DNA of 64,000 nucleotides from an uncultured Prevotella sp. (GCA_946404925.1 CAMJFM010000007.1:2662-66661), one strand, 5' to 3'; positions 1-8,592 are shown, counted from the stretch's first letter. Numbers and translations are program-made. The notes: generated by a model from the sequence alone, not told the origin.

Positions 1-1250
1 ATACTGTTGGAACTACGGAACTGATGAGTGGGCACCTGGTTTGCATACTGCCAGTTTGACATCCAAGCAATAACCACATGGCGATTCTCAGGAGCATTAC
101 TAAACGAAACTGTTGCATAGTGGTCTTTACCATAGTCCATCCACTTGGTGACCTCGGGTTTCGACTCACAAGTAAACTTATGGCCATCGAACTGGCCTAC
201 AAAGTATTGTGTTGCGTTTCCGCCAAAAGGTCCTCCTGGGTTAATGTTGCACACCAACATCCACTTCTGCTGACCAGTACCACGAACTGGCAGCTGCATC
301 ATATCGGGGCATTCCCAAACGCCACCATGGTTGCCGTATTCGCGACCGAAGCTGCTTTCAAAGGTCCACTCCTTCAGGTTGGGCGAAGAATAGAACTGCA
401 TCTCCTGACCGGCAGCAAGAACCACAATCCACTTCTGAGTTGGTTCATGCCAGAAGATCTTTGGGTCGCGGAAATCTGGAATATCGCTGGTTATCACAGG
501 GTTCTTCTCATATTTAGTAAAAGTACGGCCTCCATCAGTAGAATATGCCATTGATTGCGTCTGAGCCTCTGCAGCAGAGGTATAGTAAGCGATAATGGCA
601 TTCTTACCGAAGCCAGCAGAATTACGAGTATCAACCACGCAAGAGCCGCTGAATATAGTACCTATGGCATCTGCCTCTATCGCATTTGGCAGTGCCTCCC
701 AATGAACCAGGTCTTTTGATACAGAATGGCCCCAAGTCATATTCTCCCACAGCGATCCAAAGGGATTATATTGGAAGTACAAGTGCCACTCGCCATCCTT
801 ATAGAACATACCATTAGGATCATTCATCCAGCCATATACTGGAGAATGATGATACTCTGGACGGAATCGTTCAACGTTTGAGGTATCGAATGTATTGCTG
901 AATTTCATTTCCTTCCAGCATGCAAACTCTTTAAGAACACCCTTTGTACGACGATCGCCATGGAAAATAATATCAAGTGTCTGCCCGTCTTTAATTACTA
1001 ATGGCACATAATAATCTACATGATCTACCGACAAGCGGACATTGGGTCGGCGATAAGACTGATTGTCTTTGCCTATCACCCTGACGCTGGCATTCTCTGC
1101 CCTTTCTTCTACAGGCAGTAATACATACTTGTAGTTTGTGTCGATACTAACCATCACATGGTTATCACCGAGTACCCTGGGTTGTACCTGAGCCTGTGCC
1201 GAGGTCGCCATCAGTACTGCAGCTACGATCGTTGTCATTACCTTTTTCAT
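1..1250 (-). CDS. GH32 beta-fructofuranosidase/levanase, secreted, with N-terminal extra domain; 3' end runs off the window
   Basis: Not in the ORF track; translated by hand from ATG at 1250 (MKKVMTTIVAAVLMATSAQAQ signal peptide). Contains the GH32 catalytic motifs WMNDPNG, DFRDPK and WECPD. Confidence 0.93.
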   Translation of the reverse strand, partial: MKKVMTTIVAAVLMATSAQAQVQPRVLGDNHVMVSIDTNYKYVLLPVEERAENASVRVIGKDNQSYRRPNVRLSVDHVDYYVPLVIKDGQTLDIIFHGDRRTKGVLKEFACWKEMKFSNTFDTSNVERFRPEYHHSPVYGWMNDPNGMFYKDGEWHLYFQYNPFGSLWENMTWGHSVSKDLVHWEALPNAIEADAIGTIFSGSCVVDTRNSAGFGKNAIIAYYTSAAEAQTQSMAYSTDGGRTFTKYEKNPVITSDIPDFRDPKIFWHEPTQKWIVVLAAGQEMQFYSSPNLKEWTFESSFGREYGNHGGVWECPDMMQLPVRGTGQQKWMLVCNINPGGPFGGNATQYFVGQFDGHKFTCESKPEVTKWMDYGKDHYATVSFSNAPENRHVVIAWMSNWQYANQVPTHQFRSSNS

Positions 1251-1340
1251 AAAGTTATTCATTTTATTGTTTCAGATTTTTGCCACAAAAGTACATCAAA
1301 GATATGACACATACAATAAATAATGTTTCATTTACTAATA

Positions 1341-1383
1341 AAAATCGTTCATTGCAACAAAAATACATGCAATGAACGATTTT
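1341..1383 (-). terminator. Intrinsic terminator downstream of pdxT
   Basis: Perfect 16-bp inverted repeat AAAATCGTTCATTGCA / TGCAATGAACGATTTT with an 11-nt loop; T-rich tail on the minus strand. Confidence 0.75.
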
Positions 1384-1412
1384 TAATTCGACTAATAGTG
1401 GAACGATGAGTG

Positions 1413-1964
1413 CTATATCATATCTATCAGCAACTGATGCAGGCGGAGGTCATCGTCGAGTTCCGGATGGAAGGCGGTGGCTATCTGATTGCCTTGGCGG
1501 GCGGCTACGATATGGCCGTCGACGGTGGAAATAGCCTTGCAATCGTCAGATAATATCTCTTCGATGTATGGGGCACGGATAAACGTCATGGGTACATCAG
1601 TACCGATGCCATCGACGGTGCCTGTGGTGTGAAAACTGCCTAGCTGGCGACCGTAGGCGTTGCGGCGCACGCGGATGTGCATAGTACCCAGATAGCCATC
1701 GGACAGCAGAATCATACCGGCACAAGTGCCAAGCACTGGCAGGCCATCGGCAATGGCCTGGCGGATGGGTTCAAACAATCCGAGTTCACGCAGCAGGCGC
1801 ATCTGCACAGTACTCTCGCCACCAGGCAGGATGAGGGCTGACCACCCACCCTGCTGCCAATCGCTAAGCTGGCGAATCTCGACTGTATCGACACCCAACT
1901 TCTGCAGCACCTGCTCGTGCTCAATGAATGCCCCCTGGAGGGCTAAAACTGCAACCTTAAACAT
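1413..1964 (-). CDS. pdxT: Pyridoxal 5'-phosphate synthase glutaminase subunit
   Basis: LALQGAF, LILPGGEST, GTCAG (catalytic Cys) and FHPEL motifs; adjacent to pdxS. Confidence 0.97.
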   Translation of the reverse strand: MFKVAVLALQGAFIEHEQVLQKLGVDTVEIRQLSDWQQGGWSALILPGGESTVQMRLLRELGLFEPIRQAIADGLPVLGTCAGMILLSDGYLGTMHIRVRRNAYGRQLGSFHTTGTVDGIGTDVPMTFIRAPYIEEILSDDCKAISTVDGHIVAARQGNQIATAFHPELDDDLRLHQLLIDMI

Positions 1965-1991
1965 TAAAGATTAAACATTAAAAATTAAAGA
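1957..1991. repeat. Five tandem heptamers TTAAAnA between pdxS and pdxT
   Basis: ttaaaca-ttaaaga-ttaaaca-ttaaaaa-ttaaaga read directly from the sequence. Confidence 0.8.
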
Positions 1992-2867
1992 TTATTTTCC
2001 ACGCTCTGCCATCAGCAGTTCAATCTCGTGTTCGTTGATACCCACCATTGCCTCGCCAAGATCCTCAGAGAGTTCTGCCAAGAGCTTAGCATCTTTATAA
2101 TTGGTTACGGCCTGAACAATGGCGGCGGCACGCTTGCGTGGGTTACCGCTCTTAAAGATACCACTACCCACAAAAACGCCCTCAGCACCCAACTGCATCA
2201 TCAGAGCAGCATCGGCAGGAGTAGCCACACCACCGGCAGCGAAGTTAACAACAGGCAGTTTGCCGTTCTCATGAACAAACTTAACCAGCTCATAAGGTGC
2301 CTGCAGCTGCTTGGCAGCCTCGAAGAGCTCGTCCTCACTCATAGACACCAATCGGCGAATCTCACTCTGCATCAGGCGCATGTGACTCACAGCCTGAACA
2401 ACATCGCCCGTGCCTGGCTCGCCCTTGGTACGAATCATGGTAGCACCCTCGGCAATACGGCGCAGGGCCTCGCCAAGGTTCTTGGCTCCACAAACAAAGG
2501 GAACGTCGAACTTTGTCTTGTCAATATGGTAGATGTTATCGGCAGGGCTCAACACCTCGCTCTCGTCGATATAATCAATCTCGATGGCCTGTAGAATCTG
2601 AGCCTCAGCGATGTGGCCGATACGGCATTTTGCCATAACAGGAATGCTTACAGCCTCTTGGATTCCACGTATCATCTTAGGGTCGCTCATACGGCTCACA
2701 CCACCTGCTGCACGGATGTCGGCAGGGATACGTTCGAGGGCCATTACAGCGCAGGCACCGGCCTCTTCGGCTATGCGGGCCTGCTCGGGAGTAGTCACGT
2801 CCATTATAACACCACCCTTCAGCATCTGAGCCAACTGGCGGTTTAACAACTGTCTTTCGTTTGTCAT
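1992..2867 (-). CDS. pdxS: Pyridoxal 5'-phosphate synthase lyase subunit
   Basis: [33 protein letters not shown] and [19 protein letters not shown] motifs. Confidence 0.98.
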
Positions 2868-2876
2868 TTTTACTTA

Positions 2877-3770
2877 TTATTGTTTACGTTGATATTCGGT
2901 AGGCGACACGCCCCGTCGCTTCTTGAAGAAGCGCGACAGGTGTGCTTGCGACGAGAACCCAAGCATTTGGGCTACGTCTTTTAAAGGTTTATTGGTGGTG
3001 GTGATCAGTGTTTCGATCTCGCTGGCGATGCGCTCGTCGATGATAGCCTTGGGCGAGCGGCCTGTTGTCTGACGGGTGACCTGCCCTAAGTAGCGCGGAC
3101 TAACGTTGAGCTGTTCGGCATAGAAGGCCACATCGGCATAGCGGTTGTAGTAATGCTCTACGGCATCGAGAAACTGATTGTAGAGCTCCTCGCTACGGCT
3201 GTTTCCATCGGCATACTCGGCAGGCAACTGCTTCAGGTAGGCCTGTGCATGCAGCATGGCATCGCTCACCTTCTCGTCGAGACTCAGATAGTAGGCCAAG
3301 GCCGATGCCAACTGGTTGGCGCGTCCGTGGCGTAGCGGCGTCTCAGCCAGATCGCTTGGTGCCAATACCACTGTGCACATGGGTATCAGCAACTTCTCGA
3401 TGGCTTGGTACACACGATGATCCACCAACTGTTCGCCTTTGGCTGATGTGAGTACGGGCACATAGATAATGTGGCGTGGCTTGTGGCGCTGCAGCACCTC
3501 GGCCAGCATCTCTACTACATCAGTGCGGCGAAGAAGTCCGATCTTAACGACTTGCGGCTCAAGGTCGTTGATGATAGCCTCGACCTGCTGGCGCACTACC
3601 GATGCGGGCAGATCGTGGAACTCCTGGATACCCAAGGTGTTCTGGACAGTTATCGACGTAATGGCCGATGCAGCCGTGCCACCAAGCTTACTGATAAGCC
3701 TGATGTCGGCCTGCACACCCGATCCGCCGGTTCCATCGCTACCTGTTATCGTTAATATCGTTCGATTCAT
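2877..3770 (-). CDS. ThiD/PdxK-like (degenerate) kinase domain fused to a C-terminal AraC HTH; probable transcription regulator
   Basis: N-terminal ILTITGSDGTGGSGVQADI...TSITVQNT (ThiD-like); C-terminal AraC features YAEQLNVSPRYL and LGFSSQAHLSRFFKK. ATG at 3770 is preferred over 3806 because a promoter-like TTTG-N20-TTCCTTTG lies between them. Confidence 0.85.
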   Translation of the reverse strand: MNRTILTITGSDGTGGSGVQADIRLISKLGGTAASAITSITVQNTLGIQEFHDLPASVVRQQVEAIINDLEPQVVKIGLLRRTDVVEMLAEVLQRHKPRHIIYVPVLTSAKGEQLVDHRVYQAIEKLLIPMCTVVLAPSDLAETPLRHGRANQLASALAYYLSLDEKVSDAMLHAQAYLKQLPAEYADGNSRSEELYNQFLDAVEHYYNRYADVAFYAEQLNVSPRYLGQVTRQTTGRSPKAIIDERIASEIETLITTTNKPLKDVAQMLGFSSQAHLSRFFKKRRGVSPTEYQRKQ

Positions 3771-3861
3771 GGGTGCAAAGGAACTAAAAAACGGCGAAAC
3801 GGCCAAACATTATTCCTTTTATGATAAAAAAAACTGCAATTTGGGATAATCTCACCTTGTA

Positions 3862-6771
3862 TCATCGGCGCCAGTTGCCACGGCCCTGGTTGCCACGATT
3901 ATCGCGGCTACCCCACTTCTGATCGTAACGGTTCTCGGTATCGACCTTTCCGCCGAACATATTGAGGCGGTAGCGCACGTGGAGCATGGCATACGAGTTA
4001 ACACTGTTGTAGCGGGTATCGCTGCGGCCTGAGGCATTGACCCAACGCTCGTAGTTGCTCTGCTGACCAAGCAAATCGTAGAAGTTAAGCGCCACGATGA
4101 GCGACTTGGACTTGAGGAACGCCTTTGACACCTGACCATTCCAGATGAGCTCGTTGGTATTCATCGACGAGTCGTTATAGCCTCGGCGGCTGCGCTCATG
4201 AATCTCGCTGCTGATTTCGAAGCCCGATGGCAACTTGATGAGGAACTGACCACCGTAGTTGAACTGCCAGGTGTCGAGATCGGCACTGGGCTGCAACTCA
4301 TTGCGCGAGTGCTGGTAGTTAAGACGGCCATCGAGGGTAATCTCGAGCCAGTCGTTACGATAGCCCAGAGATATGCGCTCGTTGAAGTTGGTGGTACGGG
4401 TGGTATTCTTCGCGGCATCGGCCTGCTGCTGCGCCACATAGCTCACAAAGTTGTTGTAGCGGATGCGGGTATCGGTGCCCACATTCCAATGGGCAGTAGA
4501 GTCGAGCGCGGTATTAAATGTAAAACCGGCATTGACATTCCAGTTGCCATTGATATTCTCGGGCTGGGTGATGCTACCACCGGTTTCGGGGTTATAGCGC
4601 ACCAGGTTAGAGATGGAGTTGCGGATGTGGCGGTAGTTGGCATAGACCACGATGCTACGCTTATAGCGCACAATATAGTTATTGTAATAGCCATTGAGCG
4701 AGCTGGTGAACTGCGGCTTCAGTCCGGGATTACCCTTGGTAATGTAGAGCGGGTTTGAATCGTCGGTAATGTCGAGCAGCTGCGTCATCTCGGGCTGACG
4801 GGTATCGCCGCGATAGTGCAGCCACAGATTGCTCTGGTCGCTGAACTTATAGTGGAAGTCGAGTGTGGGCGTCAGGTTGGTGACATTGCGCACGGTATCG
4901 ACATACACGCCACGATAATCCTGAATGAAGTTAGAGTGTTGCGGCTGAACGAGGAAACCGATGTTATAATCGTACTTCTCAACACGATGGCGCAGGTTGA
5001 TGCGCATGTTGTGGGTGTAGTTCTTATACTCGGAGTAGCGACTGAGATCGCGGTCGAGATAGCTATCGAGGGTTGACCATACTGACGAGAGCCAGGGATC
5101 CCAAGTGCGATACTCGGGGGTGATGCCGGCAAAGATGTTCTGTGGCATGCCGCTGAAGTCGTAAGTCAGACGGTCGCTCTTGTTCTGATTGTATCGCAGT
5201 TCGTAGCTGAGCTGCAGGTGAGCACCCTTCCACAGCGGTTCGCTATAAGATGTGCGTACCACATAGCCGCTGTTATCGGACGGCGTGGTGTTGTAGCGGG
5301 CGGTGAAATAGGTAGAGTCCTGACCCGACACGTCTTTTACACGATACAGGTGAACCTCATCATCGCTAACGCTCTGGTTCTCGCTGTTGCCAGCGCTACC
5401 CTCGAAACGCAGGATGACATTACGACCACGGGGATTGAGGCGGCGGTACAACTGGAGCATGGCCCAGGCATTCTTGTTCTCGCCATAAGTCAGGTTGGCA
5501 TTGATATTGGTGTTGACCAGATACTGACCTAACGACGATAGCTGCGACAGGGGATCTTCGACATAGAGATAGGGGTCAGAATCGAATGTGGCAGCACTAG
5601 ACTGGGTAGTGGCATCATTAGTGCCATAGCTGCCATTGGCGCGAATCAGGATGTTAGTCAGGCTGTCGGGTTTCCACTCAAAACGCATGTTCCCCCACCA
5701 GTTATTGCTGCGGGTATAGTTGGCCTGCAGCTTATTAGAGAAGGTACGCGAGGTTTCGCTATAGAAGTTCTCGCTGGCATTCTCGGTCTGGTTATCACCA
5801 CCACGATGGTTCCAACGTAAGCTGAAATCGAGCTTCACCTTATCGTTATTGTCGTAATTGAAGTTGGTGCCCAACATTTTGCGGGCATTAAGTCCGCGAC
5901 GGTTCCACCAACCGGCATTCTCCTCCTTATTATTAAAGTTGCCCAGCAGCACAAAGCGGGTCTTATCGGTAAAGCTGCTGGCCATGCCGCGCGAGGCATA
6001 GCGGTGCTTGGTGCCGCCGGCAATGTCGAGATTAGTCATATAGCCGCGGTTCATACCTTTCTTGATAGAGAAGTCGAGCACGGTTTCCTTCTCGCCATCG
6101 TCGATACCGGTGATACGCGACTGATCGCTCTGCTGGTCGTAGAACTTCATGTTCTGGATGATGTTAACAGGGATGTTCTTGAGTGCCGTCTCCACATCGC
6201 CCAGCATAAACTCCTTACCATCAATCAGAATCTTCTTCACTTCCTTACCATTGATGGTGATGTTGCCATCCTCATCGACCTCGGCACCGGGGATGCGCTT
6301 GATGAGTTCCTCGATAGGTGAACCCTCGGGCGTGCGATAGGCCTCGGGGTTATAGACCAAGGTATCCTTCTTGACGATGACCTGAGCGGCACGACCGGTG
6401 ATGACGGCCTCCCGCAGCATGATACTCTCGGACTCCATGAGCAAGTTGCCAAGGTCTTGACTGGCATTACGGCGCAGAGACACCTCGCGCTCGATGGTCT
6501 GATAGCCTACTGATGAAATACGGAGGCGATAGATGCCACTGCGAGGAGCCTCGATATAGAAGTTTCCACGCTCGTTGGTAACAGTGCCGCCCACAAAGGT
6601 GCTATCGGATGCGGTGAACAACTGGATGGTGGCCTGAACCATGGGCTCCTTGAACTCAGAGTCGAGCAGCTGGCCACGGATAGTAAGTTTGCGATCCTCG
6701 GGCTCAGGCTGCGCCTGAGCGGTAAGGAAAGATAAGCATGTAACTAGTAATAGAACAATCTTGTTTTGCAT
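3862..6771 (-). CDS. Outer-membrane beta-barrel protein (TonB-dependent-receptor-like) with N-terminal carboxypeptidase-regulatory-like domain
   Basis: Signal peptide; IRGQLLDSEFKEPMVQATI; plug-like IEELIKRIPGAEVDEDGNITINGK; alternating beta-strand C-terminus (YAMLHVRYRLN). Confidence 0.8.
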   Translation of the reverse strand: MQNKIVLLLVTCLSFLTAQAQPEPEDRKLTIRGQLLDSEFKEPMVQATIQLFTASDSTFVGGTVTNERGNFYIEAPRSGIYRLRISSVGYQTIEREVSLRRNASQDLGNLLMESESIMLREAVITGRAAQVIVKKDTLVYNPEAYRTPEGSPIEELIKRIPGAEVDEDGNITINGKEVKKILIDGKEFMLGDVETALKNIPVNIIQNMKFYDQQSDQSRITGIDDGEKETVLDFSIKKGMNRGYMTNLDIAGGTKHRYASRGMASSFTDKTRFVLLGNFNNKEENAGWWNRRGLNARKMLGTNFNYDNNDKVKLDFSLRWNHRGGDNQTENASENFYSETSRTFSNKLQANYTRSNNWWGNMRFEWKPDSLTNILIRANGSYGTNDATTQSSAATFDSDPYLYVEDPLSQLSSLGQYLVNTNINANLTYGENKNAWAMLQLYRRLNPRGRNVILRFEGSAGNSENQSVSDDEVHLYRVKDVSGQDSTYFTARYNTTPSDNSGYVVRTSYSEPLWKGAHLQLSYELRYNQNKSDRLTYDFSGMPQNIFAGITPEYRTWDPWLSSVWSTLDSYLDRDLSRYSEYKNYTHNMRINLRHRVEKYDYNIGFLVQPQHSNFIQDYRGVYVDTVRNVTNLTPTLDFHYKFSDQSNLWLHYRGDTRQPEMTQLLDITDDSNPLYITKGNPGLKPQFTSSLNGYYNNYIVRYKRSIVVYANYRHIRNSISNLVRYNPETGGSITQPENINGNWNVNAGFTFNTALDSTAHWNVGTDTRIRYNNFVSYVAQQQADAAKNTTRTTNFNERISLGYRNDWLEITLDGRLNYQHSRNELQPSADLDTWQFNYGGQFLIKLPSGFEISSEIHERSRRGYNDSSMNTNELIWNGQVSKAFLKSKSLIVALNFYDLLGQQSNYERWVNASGRSDTRYNSVNSYAMLHVRYRLNMFGGKVDTENRYDQKWGSRDNRGNQGRGNWRR

Positions 6772-6788
6772 TGAATATTGTCTGGATA

Positions 6789-7565
6789 TTATTGTTTGGG
6801 TATAACTATGTTTTTAAATGATGAACCAAATATGATGTATTGTGTATTGCCGGCGATGGTGCCTTCGTTCTGTCCCCAGAGGAATGGCCAGTCATCGAAG
6901 TTCTCGAAGTGGTCGGGCTGATCGGTAGCAAGTGTTATCTGATGTCCGGTCTCAATGGGTAATGGATCAACAAATCGGTCGGTTCCACGGTCATCATAAG
7001 TCTTGAATCCCTTGAACTGACGCGGTTTCTCACTATTGGGACGGGTAACAGTCTGACTTGTGGCATAGCGCGGCAATCGGCCTAAGCGCCCATCAACATT
7101 ATAGGTCTTAAGCCAGTATTGTGATGGCAAGAACTCAATATTAAAGCCAGCCTCGCCAGCAAGTTTCTCGGGCACAGGCTTATCAAGCCAAACGGCAATT
7201 TCAACAGCTTTGCCCTTGGCTGTAACAACAACGCGACTATCGAAGTCGTAATCATCGTAACGCATCACAACTTCGATACTACCCTTTTCGCGGTTTACAA
7301 TGCGCGATACGGTCTTGGGCACAAGATCCCATTGTTCGGGTGTATTATTCAAGCGTACCGCTCCACCCTGTATCGTGCGCACACCATGATGAATAATCTC
7401 AATGCCGGAATTCTTCTCATCGTTAAAGCCGCCATTAAAATTATTACTGAATACAAGAATATTTACACCTTGACGCTCGAAATATTCGCGATCATTAAGT
7501 CTTAGATCCTGGGCCTGAGACAACATGGGCACAGCCATCAGGAATAGTGTCAATAAGTTCTTCAC
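6789..7565 (-). pseudogene. GH9-family glycoside hydrolase remnant: N-terminal domain joined in frame to the extreme C-terminus, catalytic core missing
   Basis: GTG start. The N-terminus (LNDREYFERQGVNILVFSN...DEKNSGIEIIHHGVRT) and the tail (QPDHFENFDDWPFLWGQNE) match my recollection of the two ends of the much longer Bacteroidales GH9 proteins, but the ORF is only 258 aa. Confidence 0.65.
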
Positions 7566-7593
7566 AAATAAGTCCAGTTAAATATTATTCTGA

Positions 7594-8592
7594 TTATTTG
7601 GTACTATCTCTTAGCTCCAGACGGGCCTTAACAATAACATGTTGCACACAGTTATCGCCATTAAGCTGGTCGAACAGTAACTTGAACGCCTTTGTGCCCA
7701 TTTCGCGCTGATTTTGTTTTACAAACGACATACGGGGCGACATTACATCCGACACCCAGTCGCTCATATATCCAATCAGCGCAACATCGTCAGGAATACG
7801 TAATCCGCGACTGTCAATAGCTCGCATCGCCGAACCTACCAGTAAGCCGTGAGTAGCAATGATAGCATCGGGCGGTTCGGGCAGATCCAACAACTCGAGT
7901 GTATCTGAAAGACCGGAATTAAAGCTGATGTAATTACACTTCACCAGTTCTTTTATAATAGGCATATTACTCTCGCGCAATGCCTCGATATATCCATGTT
8001 TGCGTTCTATGGTCTGCTTCACCCTGTTAGGTCCACCCAGGAATGCGATTCGCTTTGCACCACCATCAATTAATGTCTTAGTGGCCTGACGGGCAGAGTC
8101 GGCATCGTTAATAACTACCGACGAAATATCAATATCGGCATCACGATCGAACAACACAACAGGAACATTTATTTTCCTAAGTCGCTGGATATGAGCGAAA
8201 TCGGTGGTTTCTTGCGAAGGACATATGATGACACCCTCTACATGCATGTTTATCAGCAGCTCCAGACAACTCTTCTCGGTTTCGTATTTATCATCAGAGT
8301 CGGTGATAATACACATATACCCTTCCTTACGGGCCTCGGCCTCAATACGCTTAACGATATGAGCAAAATGATTGAACGAAATATCAGGAACCACAACACC
8401 TATGGTACGGGTGGTGTCATAACGAAGACTAACGGCAAACGGATTAGGACGATAGCCCTTGTCCTTGGCTAAAGCCAAAATCTGCTGACGCAGTTCAGAA
8501 CTCACTCCCTCCAGTCCACGCAATGCACGTGATACTGTAGAAACATTTACTCCAAGCAAGTTCGCGATTTCGCGTTGTGAAATTCTTTTCAT
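7594..8592 (-). CDS. LacI family transcriptional regulator
   Basis: HTH ISQREIANLLGVNVSTVSRAL, hinge YRPNPFAVSL, periplasmic-binding-protein-like sugar domain. Confidence 0.95.
   Translation of the reverse strand: MKRISQREIANLLGVNVSTVSRALRGLEGVSSELRQQILALAKDKGYRPNPFAVSLRYDTTRTIGVVVPDISFNHFAHIVKRIEAEARKEGYMCIITDSDDKYETEKSCLELLINMHVEGVIICPSQETTDFAHIQRLRKINVPVVLFDRDADIDISSVVINDADSARQATKTLIDGGAKRIAFLGGPNRVKQTIERKHGYIEALRESNMPIIKELVKCNYISFNSGLSDTLELLDLPEPPDAIIATHGLLVGSAMRAIDSRGLRIPDDVALIGYMSDWVSDVMSPRMSFVKQNQREMGTKAFKLLFDQLNGDNCVQHVIVKARLELRDSTK

Follow-up and report, generated by a model that had tools for sequence, protein, structure and literature searches.

A ThiD-derived pseudokinase fused to an AraC domain heads the pdxST operon of Prevotella and is a candidate vitamin B6 regulator

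The window analysed here is a stretch of 64,000 nucleotides (nt) of DNA from an uncultured Prevotella sp. (GCA_946404925.1, CAMJFM010000007.1:2662-66661). Our subject is a gene near its start that joins the remnant of a ThiD-type hydroxymethylpyrimidine (HMP)/pyridoxal kinase to an AraC-type DNA-binding domain, directly ahead of the genes for pyridoxal 5′-phosphate (PLP) synthase. A first-pass annotation, made from the sequence alone, had read the gene as an enzyme repurposed to sense a ligand and control de novo PLP synthesis. On the minus strand, positions 1413-3770 hold three tightly packed genes in the order regulator, pdxS, pdxT, with flanking signals, as follows.

3801-3846, minus strand: candidate operator of about 40 base pairs (bp), ccAAAnTGnanTTTcnTTTaTCAtAAAngGAACnnnaTTTgG, which abuts and includes the -33 box; defined by conservation and a position weight matrix (PWM).
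3776-3807, minus strand: Bacteroidetes-type promoter, with the -33 box TTTG at 3804-3807, a 20-nt spacer and the -7 box TTCCTTTG at 3776-3783.
2877-3770, minus strand: regulator coding sequence, 297 amino acids (aa), ATG at 3770 and stop codon at 2877-2879; a pseudokinase–AraC fusion.
1992-2867, minus strand: pdxS, lyase subunit of PLP synthase (NF003215, 508.6 bits against a cut-off of 395; SOR_SNZ, 360 bits), its ATG at 2867 leaving the 9-nt gap to the regulator that the first-pass annotation had given.
1413-1964, minus strand: pdxT, glutaminase subunit of PLP synthase (TIGR03800, 191.6 bits against a cut-off of 105.55).
1339-1385, minus strand: likely terminator hairpin of 18 perfect base pairs with flanking A5/U5 runs, 28 nt 3′ of pdxT.

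The protein encoded by the first gene divides into an incomplete kinase and a complete DNA-binding domain.

3366-3770, minus strand: residues 1-135, N-terminal substrate-binding half of a ThiD/PdxK ribokinase-type fold (Pfam, structure alignment).
3330-3365, minus strand: residues 136-147, deletion scar, where the predicted local distance difference test score (pLDDT) falls to 64.
3228-3329, minus strand: residues 148-181, final two helices of the kinase, where HGRAN replaces the anion-hole and catalytic motif HGTGC.
2880-3197, minus strand: residues 192-297, AraC/XylS-type DNA-binding domain with two helix-turn-helix (HTH) motifs (Pfam, PDB, Foldseek).

Profile searches locate the break in the kinase. 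Pfam Phos_pyr_kin (PF08543) matches residues 12-136 above its cut-off (135 bits) and covers positions 1-124 of its 246, and the ThiD equivalog TIGR00097 covers positions 1-131 of 254, reaching 122.8 bits against a cut-off of 204.95. The C-terminal domain of about 100 aa, with its two HTH motifs, is a full AraC-type domain (HTH_18, PF12833, residues 217-295, 73.4 bits against a cut-off of 33.6; HTH_AraC, PF00165, 57.5 bits against 26.6), and its sequence matches in the PDB are 6swi, 2k9s and 1bl0. Aligned to the solved ThiD structures 7r8y, 4jjp and 1jxh, with about 40% identity across the first 140 residues, regulator residues 4-149 correspond to ThiD 25-168 and residues 143-180 to ThiD 223-260; by the gap between these segments, the regulator lacks about 55 residues of the ATP-binding lobe. 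With the other comparisons included, we put the deletion at roughly 55-70 aa. The substrate motifs GSDGTGGSGVQAD and TVQN are both present, and HGRAN (nt 3315-3329) aligns with the HGTGC of the solved structures. The first-pass annotation had named these motifs, the altered HGTGC, the loss of much of the kinase C-lobe and the AraC HTH that follows, and the alignments bear it out on each.

Structure prediction gives the same picture. In the AlphaFold model (mean pLDDT 86), a half-Rossmann core of five to six strands is closed by two helices and followed by an AraC domain of seven helices; the linker just before that domain, residues 182-191, is modelled with low confidence. In Foldseek the N-terminal part matches ThiD and pyridoxal kinases of the ThiD type, at E-values from 5e-13 to 2e-7, and the C-terminal part matches the AraC DNA-binding domain 6swi (template modelling score TMt 0.79). 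Full-length relatives carry about 60-75 extra residues at the scar, which belong to the ATP-binding lobe and are folded as two helices and three beta strands. In the model of the closest of them, P0125 (372 aa), these are helices 144-150 and 162-170 and strands 176-180, 188-195 and 201-207, which as modelled form the nucleotide-binding lobe and are absent from the regulator. The lobe with its KGGH strand and beta hairpin, which is part of any ThiD, is found in neither the alignment nor the model of the regulator.

To read the kinase remnant residue by residue, we compared alignment columns in 72 non-redundant fusions, with pocket and catalytic positions numbered as we take them to be in the Salmonella enzyme (1JXH/1JXI). 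The pocket of the regulator consists of G10, S17, Q20, D22, Q43, K76, L79 and V106, among which G10, S17, D22, Q43, L79 and V106 stand at the ThiD pocket positions G11, A18, D23, Q44, M80 and V107. Taken together, conservation of the substrate-pocket residues is 97-100%. In Salmonella numbering, G11, Q21, D23, K77, H209 and G210 are 100% conserved in the 72 fusions; Q44 is retained in 70, the M80 position is always Met or Leu, and the V107 position is Val or Ile in 66. The catalytic positions have fared otherwise. Not one of the 72 has Lys at the position of the ATP lysine K176, long relatives with the lobe included, or Thr at the anion-hole position T211, and the position of the catalytic C213 is held by Gly, Asn or Ser, never by Cys. 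Scored over 216 fusions, the fifth motif position again lacks the catalytic Cys in every case; where ThiD has HG(T/A)GC, the regulator reads HGRAN. Across 15 pairwise comparisons, the ratio of non-synonymous to synonymous substitution rates (dN/dS) of the remnant kinase domain is 0.05-0.15, equal to that of the AraC domain. Dead catalysis, a kept pocket and purifying selection together fit a ligand-binding pseudoenzyme and do not fit a decaying gene or an enzyme, and we predict that the regulator has no kinase activity.

The rest of the genome is consistent with such a role. Its assembly, 91% complete, encodes three ThiD/PdxK-type proteins: a complete ThiD (247 bits over the full profile, HGTGC intact), a canonical PdxK with the motif HGTGD, and the fusion. 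Since separate ThiD and PdxK proteins are present, the fusion is not the cell's housekeeping kinase, and no pdxK occurs in any fusion locus examined. We found no PdxJ in this genome, which leaves PdxST as its sole de novo route to PLP. The same genome has no PdxR of the MocR type, because its single open reading frame (ORF) with a GntR domain encodes just 125 aa. Nor is the regulator itself a PdxR: neither the GntR winged-helix domain nor the aminotransferase-fold PLP domain that make up that protein was found in it.

The fusion is widespread within one bacterial order. The same domain pair occurs in 2810 database proteins, and 503 species-representative genomes encode a relative, in a search for loci seeded with a 10-sequence alignment; numbers of this size exclude a chance association of the two domains. 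The best 80 of the 503 relatives are all from rumen Prevotella or Xylanibacter, X. ruminicola KHT3 at 93% identity. No fusion was found outside Bacteroidales, a 400-genome sample of the phylum yielding ordinary ThiD alone outside the order. Databases name the family 'bifunctional hydroxymethylpyrimidine kinase/phosphomethylpyrimidine kinase'. Among the distant matches we also noted P0230, a true ThiD with HGTGC intact and a C-terminal MazG-like domain, which is a separate ThiD fusion.

Relatives differ in how much of the kinase they keep. The distance from the LPxC strand to the HG motif falls into four classes, of 15-20, 30-46, 50-54 and 66-94 residues. In a tree built from shared columns, with the variable lobe excluded and the genome's own ThiD as root, full-length forms of about 370 aa are basal and truncated forms are nested within them. 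One clade passes from 50-54 to 30-46 residues, and the minimal class to which the window's protein belongs forms a clade of its own on a long stem (Shimodaira–Hasegawa-like approximate likelihood ratio test, SH-aLRT, 100%). The tree requires six state changes, which implies at least two independent losses of the ATP lobe. Repeated erosion of fusions some 370 aa long has its end-point in the window's protein, the most reduced of all the versions. This end-point, the breadth of the family and its enzyme name in public databases go beyond the first-pass annotation.

Several observations tie the fusion to pdxST. First, 49 of the 301 genomes searched in the window's GTDB family have pdxS. The fusion is found in 31 genomes at a strict threshold, and the flanks of the remaining pdxS genes hold eight further, more divergent full-length fusions, two of them divergently oriented. 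The fusion accordingly accompanies pdxS in 39 of the 49 genomes, almost always directly upstream, and none was seen among the 252 family genomes that lack pdxS. Of the 32 loci first recovered, 28 have pdxS as the very next gene downstream, in the same orientation. Second, in other Bacteroidales families (G119, G140, G259 and G292) fusions likewise adjoin pdxST.

A few loci depart from the common layout. In G535 and G520 (loci L071 and L072) two genes lie between the regulator and pdxST; a LysR-type regulator and a small membrane protein separate pdxT from the displaced regulator there. The contig of G449 ends at the regulator locus (L074), and G119 carries a second, orphan copy of the regulator (L036). 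Beside both of these last copies (G119:C23 and G449:C81) lies an AAA-ATPase-like ORF of about 425 aa (MDKEKLKQIIIDQ... and MEYKYRIADQ..., respectively), which may mark an insertion that split the locus. One genome, G565, has two regulator–pdxS copies (L042 on contig C27 and L073 on contig C50), 77% and 67% identical to the window's protein, reflecting a genuine duplication or else a metagenome bin of mixed origin. In four genomes of genus g217 without the fusion (L078, L080, L082 and L087), a conserved AraC regulator of about 291 aa follows pdxS-pdxT. We considered it as a further-decayed relative and rejected this, as it is an ordinary cupin–AraC protein with no relation to the ThiD-like family; it may be a mere neighbour or an alternative regulator.

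The promoter of the operon is conserved across species. Upstream regions of 20 species, anchored on the -7 box, share a -33 TTTG, about 20 variable nt and TT(A/C)CTTTG, and both boxes are kept in more than 30 species while the spacer between them varies. The geometry TTTG-N20-TTCCTTTG that had been read from this one sequence is thus conserved across species. In the window, the ATG stands 5 nt past the -7 box (TTCCTTTG-CACCC-ATG), a layout that about 14 X. ruminicola-clade species retain while the -33/-7 spacer changes, and that an independent lineage (G318) also has; more distant relatives have leaders of 17-42 nt. Because the ATG lies so close to the -7 box, the mRNA is probably leaderless or nearly so, a prediction backed by this conservation.

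The same alignment bears on the gene call. The regulator ORF spans 2877-3806 on the minus strand (309 aa) if it starts at a TTG and 2877-3770 on the minus strand (297 aa) if it starts at the ATG. The ATG at 3770 is likely the true start, because every relative starts 7-13 residues ahead of the TGSD motif and because the upstream TTG (3804-3806, minus strand) is the TTG of the -33 box TTTG. Database models of 309-310 aa (P0002-P0004 and others) start at this TTG and, given its place inside the -33 box, are very likely over-extended. Their N-terminal extension, MAVSPFFSSFAP, is probably an annotation artefact, namely translated promoter DNA.

Third, a candidate operator adjoins this promoter. 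The conserved block spans about -36 to -75, the geometry of araI1-I2 and of other AraC/XylS activator sites, and we name within the candidate operator the boxes CAAAnTG, TATCATAAA and GGAAC. A PWM built from 15 species scores 50 at 3801-3846, and the next-best site in the 3.0-Mb genome scores 17. As this whole-genome scan returned no second site and no extra regulon members, the predicted regulon is this one operon. The element keeps company with pdxS and not with the regulator gene: where that gene has moved 2 kb away, in G535 and G520, the element lies upstream of pdxS, and in G342, G532 and G421 (L047, L048 and L051) it lies in the spacer between regulator and pdxS. It is absent from pdxS loci without the fusion and from the most divergent full-length groups, which presumably have diverged sites. 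AraC/XylS proteins are expected to bind near -35, and the element, conserved and unique in the genome, adjoins the -33 box and follows pdxS, as far as sequence can tell. In some relatives the -33 box also lies within an inverted repeat, AAATGGAAC-N13-GTTCCATTT.

We considered the conserved block as the terminator of the upstream gene and rejected this reading, as the block follows pdxS into different contexts and has no upstream partner arm here. In several genomes of the X. ruminicola clade (L100, L102, L106, L111 and L157), though not in the window, the distal box AAATTGCAG about 60-95 nt upstream of the regulator ATG has an upstream inverted partner, CTGCAATTT-N7-AAATTGCAG, followed by T8; this is either a second site, palindromic in form, or the upstream gene's terminator joined to the operator.

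We think it probable that the gene encodes a one-component transcription factor, a catalytically dead ThiD-derived sensor joined to an AraC domain, which controls the regulator–pdxS–pdxT promoter. The N-terminal domain descends from a ThiD-type HMP/pyridoxal kinase. It has lost phosphoryl transfer and retained the pocket, the site at which ThiD accommodates the substituted ring, pyrimidine or pyridine, with the phosphomethyl group attached to it. The AraC domain, probably as a dimer, would bind the 40-bp element upstream of and overlapping the -33 box, and the protein would activate the single promoter of the three genes when vitamin B6 is scarce. The end product, most likely PLP or else another B6 vitamer, would occupy the kinase-derived pocket and switch activation off. 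The outcome would be feedback control of de novo PLP synthesis together with autoregulation, functionally parallel to the Gram-positive PdxR. Here we infer the DNA binding at the element, the identity of the ligand, the sign of regulation and the leaderless transcript. That a ThiD pocket could hold PLP is plausible on structural grounds: the natural ligand of ThiD, HMP phosphate (HMP-P), is near-isosteric with PLP, its phosphate sitting in the HGxGx anion hole, and the Foldseek match 4ywr is a ThiD homologue crystallised with a pyridoxal compound. The original proposal of an enzyme turned sensor for PLP synthesis is strongly backed by the catalytic loss with a kept pocket, the selection on the remnant, the synteny, the element, the separate ThiD and PdxK, and the absence of PdxR and PdxJ from the genome.

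Several points weigh against this mechanism. It is built from comparative genomics, and the sign of regulation, probably activation, is argued from the position of the site. A search for a clean internal repeat in the element gave no more than a weak one, AAAn(T/G)G, in direct orientation at about 22 bp, and the right arm of AAATGGAAC-N13-GTTCCATTT is degenerate in this genome. About 10 of the 49 pdxS-positive family genomes have no such regulator, and a few copies (L036, L074) do not adjoin pdxST. Lastly, Gln at the Q44 pocket position marks HMP-specific ThiD enzymes, ThiD-type pyridoxal kinases having Met; as this HMP-type Gln is kept, the ligand could be HMP or HMP-P and not a B6 vitamer.

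The strongest competing explanation concerns the sign. Ligand-bound protein could cover the element that overlaps the -33 box and block RNA polymerase at an otherwise constitutive promoter. That the conserved block includes the -33 TTTG, that the inverted repeat brackets this box in several relatives, and that end-product co-repression is the commonest logic of biosynthetic operons all speak for such a repressor. However, most of the block lies upstream of -33, in the AraC I1-I2 activator geometry described above, and this genome has not kept the downstream arm of the inverted repeat. Activators also predominate among AraC/XylS proteins, and PdxR is itself an activator of pdxST. We regard repression as unlikely, at something like a one-in-four chance.

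A second explanation keeps the architecture and the DNA target and changes the ligand to HMP, HMP-P or a thiamine-related compound, which would couple PLP synthesis to thiamine metabolism. The pocket is of the ThiD type, with Gln at the Q44 position in nearly all members where the ThiD-family pyridoxal kinases of S. aureus and B. subtilis carry Met, and the top sequence and fold matches are HMP-P kinases and not pyridoxal kinases. Yet pdxST is the sole genomic partner of the fusion, with no second element site in the genome, for example near thi genes; the Gln region is variable in the deepest full-length branches; and the likeness of HMP-P to PLP, together with 4ywr, weighs against it as well. 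We also know of no physiological reason for gating PLP synthase on HMP. A thiamine-side ligand is in our view improbable, and more so than repression.

The remnant might instead sense no small molecule, serving as a dimerisation module or reading the status of the pathway through contact with ThiD, PdxK or PdxS/PdxT. ThiD enzymes are homodimers, pseudoenzymes often act as binding partners, and ligand binding by the sensor is a prediction. The substrate-contacting residues G10, Q20, D22, Q43, K76 and H148-G149 are, however, near-invariant across deep divergence, which is more than a mere dimerisation module would require, and we hold this explanation to be very improbable. A bifunctional enzyme-regulator in the manner of BirA or NadR, still phosphorylating HMP or pyridoxal, is suggested by the database names and the Pfam Phos_pyr_kin match above cut-off but is scarcely credible given a match to half the profile only (TIGR00097, 122.8 against 204.95), the absent ATP-binding strands, the family-wide loss of the catalytic Cys, anion-hole Thr and ATP Lys, and the separate ThiD and PdxK genes.

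PLP-responsive control of pdxST, the role of PdxR, is suggested for the fusion by synteny and co-occurrence. PdxR proteins are of the MocR/GabR type and are known from Corynebacterium glutamicum, Streptococcus pneumoniae, Listeria monocytogenes and Bacillus clausii; they activate pdxST without PLP, which acts as an anti-activator (PMC10450172). The window's protein resembles them as a local, enzyme-derived one-component regulator beside pdxST, with the same expected logic. It differs in its parts, whose folds are unrelated, with a two-HTH AraC domain and one half of a ribokinase-type fold in place of a GntR winged helix and an aminotransferase fold that binds the PLP cofactor, and in its position, mostly as first gene of the operon where pdxR is usually divergent from pdxST. 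The evolutionary source of the sensor lies in ThiD (PF08543, TIGR00097; 1JXH/1JXI, 1UB0, 4JJP, 7R8Y) and the ThiD-type pyridoxal kinases (2I5B, 4C5J-N), which share its fold and pocket. Unlike them, the regulator has no ATP lobe, catalytic Cys, anion-hole Thr or ATP Lys, has an AraC domain appended and falls below the equivalog cut-off.

With AraC of E. coli, RhaS, XylS and MelR, the regulator shares a C-terminal two-HTH domain behind an N-terminal domain for ligand binding and dimerisation, and a candidate site of about 40 bp that ends at the -35-equivalent box, like araI1-I2. It departs from them in having a kinase remnant as sensor, not a cupin or a periplasmic-binding-protein-like domain, in its -33/-7 promoter and in its vitamin biosynthesis target. 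Archaeal ThiR (ThiN domain), NrtR (Nudix), NiaR and BirA likewise join a metabolite-binding pathway enzyme to a domain for DNA binding, with loss of catalysis in the cases of ThiR and NrtR; they differ in enzyme fold, DNA-binding domain, vitamin and lineage. Neither the use of a ribokinase-type kinase nor the stepwise loss of half a fold is known to us from any of them. What is new here is the sensor fold and its unusual stepwise reduction, the kind being already known from the enzyme-derived vitamin regulators PdxR, NrtR and ThiR.

We know of no B6 regulator in Bacteroidota, and B6 regulation outside MocR/PdxR is, as far as we are aware, essentially uncharted. No description of a ThiD–AraC regulator was found in the literature searched, which included B-vitamin regulon papers (PMC6593275 and PMC5320631). 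The gene most likely encodes a transcription factor, and we see in it the best candidate for a B6 regulator, as yet undescribed, in Prevotella-type bacteria of the rumen and gut. For a broader statement we would put the chances at about even: that the fusions form a hitherto undescribed, Bacteroidales-specific family of B6-responsive factors and include the missing Prevotella B6 regulator, that half of a ribokinase-type fold (about 180 aa, with no ATP site) suffices as a receptor for PLP or a vitamer, and that catalytic death was followed by at least two independent losses of the lobe.

Prevotella and Xylanibacter dominate the rumen and gut, where vitamin supply shapes cross-feeding. If the proposal is right, it would give a handle on when such bacteria make and when they scavenge B6, and it would correct a systematic misannotation, in which thousands of entries called HMP/HMP-P kinase inflate the thiamine-salvage capacity that metabolic reconstructions predict. 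The family would also be a clean natural case of a pseudoenzyme shedding the unneeded half of its fold and a natural series of progressively minimised sensor domains, from which a compact vitamer-binding module for Bacteroidetes biosensors might be taken.

The remaining signals of the operon concern RNA. An Rfam scan of window positions 1-8000 (E ≤ 1) returned neither a riboswitch nor any other RNA element for the operon leader, its single match being a chance microRNA hit on the terminator hairpin, and a scan for sigma-70 promoters and terminators was uninformative for this phylum. The region 1263-1420 on the minus strand, which contains the hairpin, has a predicted fold of -39.7 kcal/mol (z = -4.1), and the hairpin at 1339-1385 is likely the intrinsic terminator that ends the regulator–pdxS–pdxT operon. 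It also resembles a bidirectional terminator, separating pdxT from a GH32-like gene at 3-1262.

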